Below are positions 48,621 to 50,275 of a stretch of 64,000 nt of DNA, piece after piece. The translations under genes and the position numbers were made by a program. Under the pieces are notes generated by a model. It saw only the letters and a program-made list of their open reading frames with translations. It searched no databases and was not told where the DNA came from. The stretch lies in the sequence record MN850587.1. One strand, given 5' to 3'. The stretch comes from Escherichia phage mistaenkt. The first letter of the stretch is position 1; each line of letters opens with the position of its first letter.

Positions 48621-48699
48621 TTGGTACTCCATATCGGATTCGAACCGATACATAACACAGATTTTAAGTCTGGCCTCTCTGCCAATTGGAGTAATGGAG
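48621..48699 (-). tRNA. tRNA with Leu-type anticodon UAA but apparently short variable region
   Basis: Acceptor GCTCCAT/ATGGAGT, anticodon stem CAGA/TCTG with loop CTTAAAA, T-arm ATCGG-TTCGAAT-CCGAT, A73, CCA; 79 nt. Confidence 0.6.
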
Positions 48700-48701
48700 C
48701 A

Positions 48702-48777
48702 TTGGCGGGGGATGTTGGAATTGAACCAACTTCTTCGATTTCAAAGACCGAGGTTTTAACCTTGTAAACTAATCCCC
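48702..48777 (-). tRNA. tRNA-Gln (anticodon UUG)
   Basis: Anticodon stem TCGGT/ATCGA with loop CTTTGAA, T-arm GTTGG-TTCAATT-CCAAC, CCA; A1-C72 mismatch in my fold. Confidence 0.65.
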
Positions 48778-48786
48778 TTTAAATCT

Positions 48787-49344
48787 TTACTTTCTTAGTG
48801 GATGAATAAAGAATGCCAACATAATTCTTTCCCTTGAGAATGCTCTTTCTTCTGGGACAACACTTTTAAGTTTCCATCCAACATAAATTCTCCAGTAAAA
48901 CTGTTTACCAAAGACTTTAATTGATGGGATAAAAGCGAATAATCCCCAAGCATTACTATTCCACATTAGGAGATAACCTGTCTGATTATCTTCATGGTTA
49001 GAACTTACGTTGATATTACCTTTCCACTTAGTAACATCTTTTACATCTCTTCCCAATACATGGTAAGAGAAGTTATAAGCTTTGTTTCTCCAGAGCCATC
49101 CAACTCTCTGCATATAAACACCGAGCTTGCCAATCTTTCGAATATTAGCCCATCGTTCAACGTGACCTTTGTCACCGTCAATTGGGTTGTCATAAGTTTC
49201 CATCCATCTGAAACCAAAAGGCAAGTGACCTTTCTTCTCACTGTAGAATGGAACCACAAAGGGTGCTAAGATTACTGCTAAGATTGCTGCAAATGGCTCT
49301 AGCAAAGCTATGAAAATCCATGAAGCATACTTCAAATATCTCAT
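48787..49344 (-). CDS. Hypothetical membrane protein (185 aa) embedded in the tRNA island
   Basis: ORF track; N-terminal hydrophobic segment IFIALLEPFAAILAVILAPFVVPF. Confidence 0.45.
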   Translation of the reverse strand: MRYLKYASWIFIALLEPFAAILAVILAPFVVPFYSEKKGHLPFGFRWMETYDNPIDGDKGHVERWANIRKIGKLGVYMQRVGWLWRNKAYNFSYHVLGRDVKDVTKWKGNINVSSNHEDNQTGYLLMWNSNAWGLFAFIPSIKVFGKQFYWRIYVGWKLKSVVPEERAFSRERIMLAFFIHPLRK

Positions 49345-49363
49345 TTAAATAGCCTCTTTAAAT

Positions 49364-49440
49364 TGGTGCAGAATAAGGGATTCGAACCCCTAACAAACAA
49401 CTTCGTAGGTTGCTGCTCTATCCATTTGAACTAATTCTGC
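49364..49440 (-). tRNA. tRNA-Arg (anticodon ACG)
   Basis: Acceptor GCAGAAT/ATTCTGC, anticodon loop CTACGAA, T-loop TTCGAAT, CCA. Confidence 0.75.
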
Positions 49441-49617
49441 AATGTTCTTTTGAGATTCCTGTCTAGCTCTCTTTTTATCTCTTCTGAGAAAGCGTCTACG
49501 ATGGTCTGTACGCCACTTGTAGTAATCTTCTTCACCAGCGTGAGAAGCACAGCAACCACAACTTGCAATTTCAACTTTACCGTGTCTACCATAAGGCTTC
49601 ATAGGAATCTCCTAAAA

Positions 49618-49695
49618 TTGGTGTTCCAAGACGGATTCGAACCGTCACTAATACAAGGTTTGAGTTTGCATCCTCTGCCAATTGGGATACTGGAA
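49618..49695 (-). tRNA. tRNA with Leu-type anticodon CAA but apparently short variable region
   Basis: Acceptor GTTCCAG/TTGGAAC, anticodon stem GCAA/TTGT with loop CTCAAAC, T-arm GACGG-TTCGAAT-CCGTC, A73, CCA; 78 nt. Confidence 0.55.
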
Positions 49696-49697
49696 CA

Positions 49698-49773
49698 TTG
49701 GTACTCGCTGAAGGACTTGAACCTTCTTCACCAACTTGTAAGGATGGGGCTTTACCGTATAAACTAAGCGAGT
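49698..49773 (-). tRNA. tRNA-Val (anticodon UAC)
   Basis: Acceptor ACTCGCT/AGCGAGT, anticodon loop CTTACAA, T-arm GAAGG-TTCAAGT-CCTTC, CCA. Confidence 0.7.
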
Positions 49774-49869
49774 ATGAAAAGAGGTCTGAAGTTGTGCCGC
49801 TAACTCAACTCCGTGGAATTTGTTACGGTCTTCAGTTGACTCAAGCGGTCTTTCACTCGACCTCTGAAT
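49774..49869 (-). ncRNA. Structured spacer without canonical tRNA features (nested stems, ends pair GAGGTC/GACCTC); function unknown
   Basis: About 96 nt between tRNA-Val and tRNA-Thr; complementary termini and inner CTGAAG/CTTCAG stem; no T-loop consensus, no CCA. Confidence 0.25.
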
Positions 49870-49945
49870 TGGTGCTCCCACAAGGATTCGAACCCTGATA
49901 AGTTGCTTACAAGGCAACCGTAATAGCCAATTATACGATAGGAGC
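49870..49945 (-). tRNA. tRNA-Thr (anticodon UGU)
   Basis: Acceptor GCTCCTA/TGGGAGC, anticodon stem GTTGC/GCAAC with loop CTTGTAA, T-loop TTCGAAT, CCA. Confidence 0.8.
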
Positions 49946-49952
49946 ATTAATT

Positions 49953-50027
49953 TGGAGCATCCAGAGGGAATCGAACCCTCAACCTCAGTTTGGAAGACTG
50001 TAATTTTCCCGTTTAAACTATGGATGC
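49953..50027 (-). tRNA. tRNA-Gly (anticodon UCC)
   Basis: Perfect acceptor GCATCCA/TGGATGC, anticodon loop CTTCCAA, T-loop TTCGATT, CCA. Confidence 0.8.
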
Positions 50028-50033
50028 ACTAAT

Positions 50034-50109
50034 TGGTGGAGAAGCAGGGAATCGAACCCTGTACTTAAGTTTGCAAAACTTATGTTTTAACCATTTAAAC
50101 TACAACCCC
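50034..50109 (-). tRNA. tRNA-Ala (anticodon UGC)
   Basis: Perfect anticodon stem TAAGT/ACTTA with loop TTTGCAA, G3-U70 wobble (Ala identity pair), T-loop TTCGATT, CCA; two U-U mismatches in acceptor stem. Confidence 0.65.
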
Positions 50110-50115
50110 AATGTT

Positions 50116-50191
50116 TGGTACAGGTGGAGGGAATTGAACCCATCGTCTTACTGATTAAGAGTCAGCCGCATAACCATTTTGCTACACCTGC
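50116..50191 (-). tRNA. tRNA-Lys (anticodon CUU)
   Basis: Acceptor GCAGGTG/CACCTGT, anticodon loop CTCTTAA, T-loop TTCAATT, CCA. Confidence 0.65.
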
Positions 50192-50198
50192 ATTAATT

Positions 50199-50275
50199 TG
50201 GTACACCTAGAGAGAGTCGAACTCACACTGAACAGATTCTAAGTCTGCTGCCTCTTCCAATTGGGCTATAGGTGC
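50199..50275 (-). tRNA. tRNA with Leu-type anticodon UAG but apparently short variable region
   Basis: Acceptor GCACCTA/TAGGTGT, anticodon stem GCAGA/TCTGT with loop CTTAGAA, T-loop TTCGACT, A73, CCA; 77 nt. Confidence 0.6.

Follow-up and report, generated by a model that had tools for sequence, protein, structure and literature searches.

Bacterial tRNA-Leu normally has a long variable arm, and textbooks confine the short-armed form to animal mitochondria. Animal mitochondrial tRNA-Leu combines a short variable loop with the A73 and A14 identity elements (PMC9976931), and in animal mitochondrial tRNAs the elbows formed by the D and T loops are weakened or non-canonical. The only bacterial exception found in the literature was a single Streptomyces gene, described there as rare. 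This type I tRNALeu(CAA) of Streptomyces coelicolor has been studied biochemically and accepts leucine (Fan et al., NAR 2019, PMC6614811). It is a cellular gene with long-arm isoacceptors beside it, its variable loop is the 5-nt ACAGC, and charging of type I tRNA by its own LeuRS reportedly needs the leucine-specific domain of that enzyme. E. coli LeuRS is reported not to charge it, and the leucine-specific domain of the E. coli enzyme to favor large variable regions (PMC6614811). E. coli LeuRS requires A73, the Levitt pair formed by A15 and U48, and, in the elbow, G18G19 with A20a, leaving the anticodon and the arm unread; tRNA-Leu variants without the long arm remain active with this enzyme (PMC9976931). 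Our literature search, which covered non-subscription journals, found no earlier account of phage tRNA-Leu with a short arm.

The window, i.e., the whole 64,000-nt stretch analyzed here (Escherichia phage mistaenkt, MN850587.1), comes from a Felix O1-like Ounavirinae phage (Suspvirus/Felixounavirus) that infects E. coli and Salmonella. Its tRNA island includes three genes with leucine anticodons and short variable loops.

47417..53618, minus strand: phage tRNA island with 24 ARAGORN tRNAs, tRNA-Glu(UUC), and a Tyr(GUA)-like gene; holds all three Leu genes
47500-47592: tRNA-Ser, 21-nt variable arm when parsed as for the Leu genes
48622..48700, minus strand: tRNA-Leu(UAA), 79 nt including the encoded CCA, anticodon 48664-48666, ARAGORN and Rfam (47.5 bits)
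49619..49696, minus strand: tRNA-Leu(CAA), 78 nt including CCA, anticodon 49660-49662, ARAGORN and Rfam (39.4 bits)
50199..50275, minus strand: tRNA-Leu(UAG), 77 nt including CCA, anticodon 50239-50241, ARAGORN and Rfam (54.1 bits)
50985-51074: tRNA-Ser, 20-nt variable arm when parsed as for the Leu genes
52989-53069, minus strand: Tyr(GUA)-like gene with a long arm, only 22.8 bits, no ARAGORN call
53463-53534: tRNA-Glu(UUC), detected by Rfam only and additional to the ARAGORN set

Small open reading frames and HNH endonuclease genes are scattered among the tRNAs, and the island is collinear with that of Salmonella phage PC79-13 and other Ounavirinae. Other degenerate tRNA-like pieces are also present in the island. 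GenBank records of relatives already label the UAA, CAA, and UAG genes as tRNA-Leu. An earlier, sequence-only reading of this DNA had located the UAG gene exactly, but had placed the UAA and CAA genes one position away from the ARAGORN calls and left the minus strand unstated. It had also proposed that leucine would be the only amino acid missing from the set without these three genes, and this does not hold; tRNA-Trp is absent from the combined ARAGORN and Rfam set, even when tRNA-Glu(UUC) is counted, so leucine would not be the only gap.

The Rfam tRNA model (Infernal) covers each of the three Leu genes end to end (model positions 1-71), with E-values of 1e-8 (UAA), 2e-6 (CAA), and 2e-10 (UAG) and scores of 39-54 bits, above the gathering score of 29. 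ARAGORN and Infernal gave the same anticodons and the same variable regions for all three. Each anticodon lies in a 7-nt loop (CUUAAAA for UAA, CUCAAAC for CAA, and CUUAGAA for UAG) with U33 and the purine A37, and the discriminator A73 is followed by an encoded CCA; these features agree in ARAGORN, Infernal, and our parse with what had been described from the sequence alone. The variable loops are GUUAUGU in Leu(UAA) (7 nt, 48650-48656), AUUAGU in Leu(CAA) (6 nt, 49647-49652), and UCAGU in Leu(UAG) (5 nt, 50227-50231), and the previous estimates of 77-79 nt for the genes and about 5-7 nt for the variable region were accurate. The long variable arm of a class II tRNA was not found in any of the three genes by ARAGORN, Infernal, or RNAalifold, and the short loops contain no helix. 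Automated folding and Infernal alignment, the check proposed in the sequence-only reading, neither moved the anticodons nor created a long arm. The contrast drawn there with the long-armed Ser and Tyr genes of the same island was also upheld, the Tyr member being the low-scoring gene that ARAGORN did not call.

One non-standard pair is present per gene. Leu(UAA), which has a 3-bp D stem, A9, C13, and A73, carries a C27.U43 mismatch. The A31.C39 mismatch of Leu(CAA) is private to the window, with G31-C39 found in the two relatives compared and in an IMG/VR contig (L100). Leu(UAG) has A37 instead of G37 and a T-stem mismatch, U50.U64. Together with the modest Infernal score of the CAA gene, these mismatches could be taken as signs that the genes are decaying or non-functional relics that only resemble tRNAs. 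Single-sequence minimum free energy folding was also weak (z of -1.6, -2.3, and +0.1), and the UAG gene alone folded near a cloverleaf. We judged this result uninformative because the tRNAs are AU-rich and were folded unmodified, and based the structural assignment on covariance models and comparative folding instead. RNAalifold applied to 60 diverse short tRNA-Leu returned a cloverleaf of 7/3/5/5 bp with no variable helix and with compensatory changes in 19 of 20 pairs; in a set of 133 unique short tRNA-Leu from phages, no stem pair is less than 94% canonical, and each is formed by 2-6 standard pair types. A CAA-UAA fusion in phage FG1m, a hybrid gene whose acceptor stem is broken, could be read as decay, and so could the degenerate pieces elsewhere in the island. 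However, 215 phage records (Felix O1-like) carry Leu(UAA) with 100% identity, Leu(CAA) is 95-99% identical in 245, and Erwinia phage phiEa21-4 of the same subfamily likewise has three short tRNA-Leu. Genes that encode CCA, score above the Rfam threshold, have a single mismatch each, and are identical or nearly so across hundreds of genomes do not fit the description of tRNA pseudogenes, and family-wide compensatory changes make decay highly improbable. The Leu(UAA) gene had no match in 5,426 complete E. coli genomes.

Sequence features were then compared with those that specify leucine identity. A side-by-side parse, in line with the comparison to host genes that had been suggested earlier, showed that U8, A14, A15, G18G19, and U48 of the three genes are the same as in E. 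coli leuQPV, leuZ, leuX, leuW, and leuU; the Leu D arm and A73 are likewise shared, whereas the tRNA-Leu of E. coli itself are all long-armed. The 17-nt D arm carries the AAUUGGNAGA loop of E. coli tRNA-Leu and, with its 3-bp stem and a loop of A14 A15 U16 U17 G18 G19 N A, has the same length as in the five E. coli isoacceptors. With the AAUUGG(C/A)AGA D loop in register with these isoacceptors, the U8-A14, A15-U48, G18G19, and A20a elements all appear, at the level of sequence, to be in place. The likeness to class II tRNA-Leu of E. coli (leuZ, leuX, leuW, etc.) and phage T5 extends to the anticodons, A73, D-arm length, and T loop. The class II tRNAs differ in having a 13-15 nt arm with a helix, G9, G12-C23, and G13 or A13, where the window genes have A9, C12-G23, and C13, and core identity between the window genes and the host tRNA-Leu genes is only 50-62%. 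Unlike animal mitochondrial tRNAs, the phage genes retain G18G19 and a UUCGAAU-type T loop.

None of approximately 1,800 non-Leu tRNAs had the D-arm signature combined with A73, which was found in 231 of 291 short tRNA-Leu and in 108 of 178 long ones. Phage short tRNA-Leu have A73 in 96% and U48 in 95% of cases, and neither was forced by the search pattern. G1.U72 was considered as a mark of short tRNA-Leu but dropped, since long-arm tRNA-Leu have it about as often and it is present in leuZ and leuU.

These data bear on the suggestion, made in the sequence-only reading, that the genes could encode tRNAs of another amino acid identity that carry leucine anticodons, which would imply recoding of UUR/CUN codons or deliberate mistranslation. 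The class I body is that of most non-Leu tRNAs, and a crude naive-Bayes isotype classifier, run with the anticodon and variable region left out, favored Glu, Cys, or Lys bodies and ranked Leu 4th-5th of 20 for the three genes; its accuracy was 75% in cross-validation, with 13 of 21 of this phage's other tRNAs assigned correctly. The low rank of Leu was traced to A9, C12-G23, and C13, which led to recognition of a "core A" family (see below), and the classifier output was rejected as a sign of another identity. Nearest-neighbor assignment from whole sequences was discarded as too noisy, with many other tRNAs of the phage also misassigned. The failure of E. coli LeuRS to charge the Streptomyces type I tRNA-Leu (PMC6614811) could also be taken to favor another identity, but this may be because the S. 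coelicolor tRNA has C48, in contrast to U48 in the phage genes, and as a member of the same family it does accept leucine. The signature of D arm and A73 is exclusive to Leu, there is no G3-U70 pair as for Ala, and the long arm of Ser and Tyr, the G73 of Ser, and the GUA anticodon of Tyr are all absent. The remaining E. coli synthetases depend on the anticodon (PMC9976931), and UAA, CAA, and UAG fit none of them. Furthermore, none of the island's open reading frames was seen to encode an aminoacyl-tRNA synthetase. Given this evidence, we give very little credence to another identity.

The leucine codon shares of the window are UUA.22, UUG.17, CUU.28, CUC.06, CUA.075, and CUG.20, so that codons other than CUG make up approximately 80% in a phage of 40% GC. 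In the host, the CUG reader makes up most of the tRNA-Leu pool. The UAA gene would be expected to decode UUA/UUG, the CAA gene UUG, and the UAG gene CUN. In the terminase, leucine is the most frequent counterpart of UUA, UUG, CUU, CUC, and CUG in homologues of 40-60% identity. This Codetta-like check is consistent with leucine decoding and, for UUA, UUG, and CUU in particular, goes against another identity, on a small sample of a single protein with 2-9 codons per codon type, in which CUA was uninformative.

Short-arm tRNA-Leu genes are not confined to this phage. In an IMG/VR sample drawn irrespective of variable-loop length, 45 of 176 tRNA-Leu had loops of 9 nt or less and about three-quarters retained the arm, figures that rest on a search pattern demanding an AATTGG D loop; in the same sample, all tRNA-Ser loops were at least 14 nt and nearly all tRNA-Tyr loops at least 9 nt. 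Cultured phages with short tRNA-Leu belong to the Ounavirinae, Vequintavirinae, Demerecviridae, Herelleviridae, and Bixzunavirus, with one Vibrio phage in addition, and include the well-known Felix O1-like, phiEa21-4, Bxz1-like, EFDG1-like, and Certrevirus phages. In Actinobacteria, the short form occurs as solitary chromosomal genes and is the normal chromosomal form in many. Among short tRNA-Leu, 37 of the 127 from phages and 78 of the 115 from bacteria have the core of A9, C12-G23, and C13, against 0 of 129 long tRNA-Leu, and all three window genes have it together with a Leu-type D loop. The most frequent variable-loop length in the family is 5 nt, and 104 of 105 five-nt loops have U48; the UCAGU, AUUAGU, and GUUAUGU loops of the window also end in pyrimidine 48 and have no arm. 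Actinobacterial type I genes resemble the window genes in A9, a GCCC...GGC D stem, the AAUUGGCAGA loop, and an NCAGU variable loop. The D arm and variable loop of Leu(UAG) are nearly identical to those of actinobacterial chromosomal type I tRNA-Leu, and its UCAGU compares with ACAGC in S. coelicolor. The window genes differ in their setting, being carried by phages of E. coli and Salmonella, whose tRNA-Leu are all long-armed. These data show that the window genes are members of a large, conserved, covarying short-arm tRNA-Leu family that is common in phage tRNA clusters and on actinobacterial chromosomes. The unusual tRNA-Leu architecture proposed from the sequence alone is supported as to form, a class I body with the Leu D arm, A73, and U48, but is less singular than assumed, since it is widespread in phages and Actinobacteria and described in S. 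coelicolor (PMC6614811).

The three genes very probably encode genuine phage leucine tRNAs built on a class I body, with a loop of 5-7 nt in place of the long arm. They are most likely ordinary leucine decoders, and we infer from their identity elements that host LeuRS would charge them with leucine. Published findings on such charging diverge: E. coli tRNA-Leu variants lacking the arm remain active (PMC9976931), whereas the type I tRNA of S. coelicolor was reportedly not charged by E. coli LeuRS (PMC6614811). The three genes are presumably co-transcribed with the other tRNA genes of the minus-strand island, and host enzymes would process the transcripts. Of the class II families, Leu alone would be able to lose the arm because bacterial SerRS and TyrRS depend on it, which fits the long arms that tRNA-Ser and tRNA-Tyr retain in these clusters. 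By default, arm loss may be viewed as tolerated streamlining from an old short-arm lineage, with no special function.

Alternatively, the tRNAs could still be leucine decoders with a short loop that is an adaptation in a tRNA arms race rather than a neutral loss. Arm loss might hide phage tRNA-Leu from host factors that recognize or cut class II variable arms, or might allow the phage to withstand the destruction of host tRNA-Leu or even to bring it about. Defense or toxin enzymes directed at variable arms are known: VapC52 cleaves tRNA-Ser within the variable loop (PMC13273310), and MenT3, placed in the DUF1814 nucleotidyltransferase family, requires the long variable loop of tRNA-Ser (PMC11162799). 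Defense-escaping phage tRNAs provide a further parallel, since T5 tRNA-Lys (against PARIS) and SP15 tRNA-Tyr (against Retron-Eco7) are isoacceptors altered where the host nuclease acts, which for SP15 tRNA-Tyr is the variable loop; for tRNA-Leu, however, no matching defense enzyme is known, and the likeness is an analogy. No enterobacterial enzyme that targets the variable arm of tRNA-Leu specifically is known to us, and a literature search for one found none. Bacterial Schlafen was considered as a class II-specific nuclease and rejected; the characterized enzyme cuts tRNA-Lys, Met, and Ala, none of which is class II. It is in keeping with an arms race that only Leu, the sole class II family free to do so, loses the arm, and that short tRNA-Leu are over-represented in the tRNA clusters of phages infecting hosts (e.g., E. 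coli) with long-arm tRNA-Leu only. However, many Actinobacteria have this short-arm core as their normal chromosomal form, which argues for inheritance from an old lineage and not for repeated escape, and most of the sampled phage tRNA-Leu are still long-armed. We consider an arms-race origin possible but unlikely. It is also rather doubtful that arm loss is a selected phage strategy as such, in which the tRNAs would be chargeable in many hosts, not mistakable for tRNA-Ser or tRNA-Tyr, and immune to arm-directed enzymes; the reasoning would be that Leu is the only class II tRNA with an arm-ignoring synthetase and that phages would therefore carry it arm-less. If true, short-arm tRNA-Leu in coliphages would be the sign of a tRNA-Leu-directed defense yet to be discovered, or of a phage attack on host tRNA-Leu.

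Type I tRNA-Leu was already known from S. coelicolor, and its commonness in phages and Actinobacteria suggests that "rare" is not an apt description. Genes of this kind may be flagged as isotype mismatches by annotation tools, and arm-less tRNA-Leu scaffolds may serve engineering. The contrast between Leu and Ser/Tyr is a natural readout of arm dependence among synthetases. If natural type I tRNA-Leu are charged by the E. coli enzyme LeuRS, the generalization from the Streptomyces work would be contradicted; if they are not, these strictly conserved genes would do something else.

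The tRNA island of the window comprises 24 tRNA genes called by ARAGORN on the minus strand (47417-53618), three of which are tRNA-Leu:

48622-48700, minus strand: tRNA-Leu(UAA), 79 nt; variable region GUUAUGU, 7 nt; Rfam 47.5 bits
49619-49696, minus strand: tRNA-Leu(CAA), 78 nt; variable region AUUAGU, 6 nt; Rfam 39.4 bits
50199-50275, minus strand: tRNA-Leu(UAG), 77 nt; variable region UCAGU, 5 nt; Rfam 54.1 bits

The sequence-only reading had described compact tRNAs with Leu anticodons, and both ARAGORN and the Rfam tRNA covariance model (gathering score 29 bits) confirmed this with variable regions of 7, 6 and 5 nt, although its coordinates were off by one for two of the three genes. 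The covariance model covers all three genes over model positions 1-71, its anticodons match those of ARAGORN, and neither a long arm nor a shifted anticodon, the two outcomes that the sequence-only reading had named as refuting it, emerged from these two methods. ARAGORN folds the genes with a 7-bp acceptor stem, a 3-bp D stem with an 11-nt loop, and 5-bp anticodon and T stems; no variable-arm helix is drawn, and both Ser genes of the island are drawn long-armed, as the same reading had proposed. Single-sequence minimum free energy folding was weak (z = -1.6, -2.3 and +0.1) and was taken as uninformative for AU-rich tRNAs.

The tRNA region of the window matches Ounavirinae phages of Escherichia and Salmonella (Suspvirus and Felixounavirus, i.e., Felix O1-like) at 97-98% identity. 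Leu(UAA) is 100% identical across 215 phage records, Felix O1 among them, and no copy was found in the 5,426 complete E. coli genomes searched. Leu(CAA) is 95-99% identical across 245 records; Leu(UAG) is less constant, and certain Felix-like phages have another short tRNA-Leu in its place. Salmonella phage FG1m has a tRNA-Leu(caa) call (5999-6076 of locus L003) that is a hybrid of the 5' part of the CAA gene and the 3' end of the UAA gene. The two are joined within a T loop common to both genes and its acceptor strands are therefore unpaired; it looks as if the two short tRNA-Leu genes had recombined, with deletion of the intervening DNA.

Further features lie in and beside the island:

50277-50729, minus strand: small ORF, Pfam HNH endonuclease (E 8e-5)
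52230-52283, minus strand: tRNA-like fragment, Rfam tRNA 31.3 bits, model positions 9-63 only
52533-52961, minus strand: small ORF with an HNH-like Cys/His pattern, no Pfam match
52989-53069, minus strand: Tyr(GUA)-like tRNA, 22.8 bits (under the Rfam threshold), uncalled by ARAGORN
53463-53534, minus strand: tRNA-Glu(UUC), full length, Rfam 53.7 bits, missed by ARAGORN
53785-55200, minus strand: 471-aa ORF, Pfam DUF2828 and DUF7788

With tRNA-Glu(UUC) included, the island covers 18 amino acids, the Tyr-like gene being extra, and the window as a whole yielded no tRNA-Trp. The Tyr-like gene, whose T stem contains a U.U mismatch, has a 15-nt variable arm, in keeping with the earlier claim of a long-armed tRNA-Tyr. 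It is identical to "tRNA-Pseudo-GTA" of Salmonella phage PC79-13, where it adjoins tRNA-Asp; in the window, the 142-aa ORF 52533-52961 separates the two. The fragment at 52230-52283 retains D, anticodon (GGU) and T arms without an acceptor stem, and could be a truncated tRNA-Thr or the tRNA-like domain of another small RNA. ORF 50277-50729 stops 2 nt short of the tRNA-Leu(UAG) 5' end, and in Enterococcus phage EFDG1 the short tRNA-Leu(UAG) and an HNH endonuclease gene overlap. The FG1m counterpart of the 471-aa ORF is annotated as an RNA-binding protein, and Vibrio phage phiKT1024 encodes a TROVE-domain (Ro-like) protein approximately 2 kb from its short tRNA-Leu; Ro-like RNA-binding proteins may be linked with phage tRNA clusters.

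The three genes were parsed side by side with the five tRNA-Leu isoacceptors of E. coli and with the tRNA-Leu of phage T5. A 17-nt D arm (NNN-N-AAUYGGNAGA-NNN), U8, U48 and A73 are common to all, and the variable arms of the E. coli and T5 tRNAs are 13-15 nt. Among approximately 2,300 distinct tRNAs compared, this D arm with A73 occurs in 231/291 short and 108/178 long tRNA-Leu, and in 0 of about 1,800 tRNAs of non-Leu isotypes. E. coli LeuRS needs A73, the A15-U48 Levitt pair, G18G19 and A20a; it is independent of the anticodon and the long arm, and arm-less variants stay active (PMC9976931). It is very improbable that the genes have another amino acid identity and only their anticodons are those of Leu: they lack a G3-U70 pair, a long arm and G73, and UAA, CAA and UAG suit no anticodon-reading E. 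coli synthetase. Under the published identity rules (PMC9976931), with these elements missing, other E. coli synthetases should not accept the tRNAs. Terminase codons UUA, UUG, CUU, CUC and CUG lie most often opposite Leu in homologues of 40-60% identity, a small check that agrees with presumptive ordinary Leu decoding. The window tRNA-Leu(UAG) has A37, in contrast to G37, the m1G37 methylation site, in host leuW, leuU and leuQPV. T5 tRNA-Leu(UAG) also has A37, and among the phage short tRNA-Leu sampled, 117 have A37 and 40 have G37.

BLAST with the three genes found matches annotated as tRNA-Leu in unrelated cultured phages. Short UAG, CAA and UAA trios are present in Aeromonas phage AhP_Mru1 (Demerecviridae; 77 nt each) and Lactobacillus phage LpeD (Herelleviridae), and short tRNA-Leu in Erwinia phage phiEa21-4 (Ounavirinae), Enterobacter phage F2M1E (Vequintavirinae), Mycobacterium phage ET08 (Bxz1-like), phiKT1024, more than 130 mycobacteriophages and 50 Streptomyces phages. 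EFDG1 has a short UAG gene adjoining a long UAA gene, and T5 itself has the long arm. The AhP_Mru1 cluster also holds a UCA-anticodon tRNA (796-875 of L002), a suppressor according to the record and tRNA-SeC according to ARAGORN.

A DNA pattern of Leu D loop, Leu anticodon loop and T loop matched at least 120 IMG/VR contigs with short-arm spacing and likewise at least 120 with open spacing. In the 120 open-spacing loci listed, ARAGORN gave variable regions of at most 9 nt for 45/176 tRNA-Leu (26%), a figure that hinges on the AATTGG D loop requirement and on a sample that may hold host tRNAs from prophage contigs; variable regions there were at least 14 nt in all Ser and at least 9 nt in nearly all Tyr tRNAs. 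Across 133 unique short tRNA-Leu, each stem position pairs canonically in at least 94% of sequences and shows 2-6 standard pair types, and RNAalifold of 60 diverse members gave a cloverleaf without a variable helix and compensatory changes in 19 of 20 pairs; judged from these alignments, selection maintains the short-arm fold. In a bacterial species collection, most matches listed were solitary 75-77 nt tRNA-Leu (UAA, CAA or UAG) on actinobacterial chromosomes, with Nocardia, Rhodococcus, Mycobacterium, Corynebacterium, Arthrobacter and Bifidobacterium among the genera; certain others were arrays of 17-34 tRNA genes in metagenome-assembled genomes. Several of these assemblies (L229, L252, L227 and others; Acidobacteriota and other groups) pack 25-34 tRNA genes into 8 kb, with several short-arm tRNA-Leu per array, and these arrays look like phage-type tRNA clusters within bacterial assemblies. 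All three window genes are already labelled tRNA-Leu in GenBank records such as PC79-13, and type I tRNA-Leu is known from animal mitochondria and S. coelicolor. A 2023 review confines arm-less tRNA-Leu to animal mitochondria (PMC9976931), and the literature searched, in which the term "type I tRNALeu" appears in a single paper, yielded no description of short-arm tRNA-Leu in phages or of its breadth in Actinobacteria.

A crude isotype classifier, blind to anticodon and variable region, did not call the window genes Leu; this failure was traced to A9, C12-G23 and C13. The corresponding positions in long-arm tRNA-Leu are G9, G12-C23 and G13 or A13. The A9/C12-G23/C13 combination occurs in 37/127 phage short, 78/115 bacterial short and 0/129 long tRNA-Leu. 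Actinobacterial genes carry UA-GCCCAAUUGGCAGAGGC-A with loops CCAGU or ACAGU, nearly the D arm and loop of window Leu(UAG); the loop of S. coelicolor type I tRNALeu(CAA) is ACAGC rather than UCAGU. These similarities place the window genes in the sequence family of the S. coelicolor tRNA. Their cores are 50-62% identical to host genes and 71-85% to the best short-arm matches, and they do not look, by sequence, like recent deletion derivatives of a host-like tRNA-Leu. Short tRNA-Leu cores (IMG/VR and genome loci L006-L334) are of at least two types. The window genes and Actinobacteria represent one, A9/C12-G23/C13 with a loop that ends in AGU or GUU; AhP_Mru1 represents the other, host-like G9/G12-C23/G13 with a loop that ends in UUU. 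The two types suggest that the arm was lost more than once.

The three genes would most likely be co-transcribed with the island, matured by host enzymes and charged with leucine by host LeuRS through A73 and the elbow; the UAA gene would read UUA/UUG, the CAA gene UUG and the UAG gene CUN. Leu codon use in the window ORFs is UUA.22, UUG.17, CUU.28, CUC.06, CUA.075 and CUG.20, CUG being the codon of the host's major tRNA-Leu isoacceptor. The main point against such charging is that S. coelicolor type I tRNALeu(CAA) was reportedly not charged by E. coli LeuRS, whose leucine-specific domain is reported to favor large variable regions (Fan et al., PMC6614811). At position 48 the Streptomyces tRNA carries C and the phage genes carry U, the base (A15-U48 pair) reportedly required by E. 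coli LeuRS (PMC9976931), and C48 may lie behind that failure.

Arm loss could instead be adaptive and linked to enzymes that recognize or cut class II variable arms. We consider this unlikely, and know of no such enzyme for tRNA-Leu. Variable-arm enzymes are known for other class II tRNAs, with Retron-Eco7 PtuAB acting on tRNA-Tyr, and VapC52 (PMC13273310) and MenT3 (PMC11162799) on tRNA-Ser. A phage tRNA-Tyr evades PtuAB through its variable loop, and class II tRNAs are not the targets of a characterized bacterial Schlafen. Our default reading is that loss of the arm was tolerated and has been inherited within an old short-arm lineage. Bacterial SerRS and TyrRS depend on the long variable arm, and the loss of the arm in Leu alone fits this dependence.
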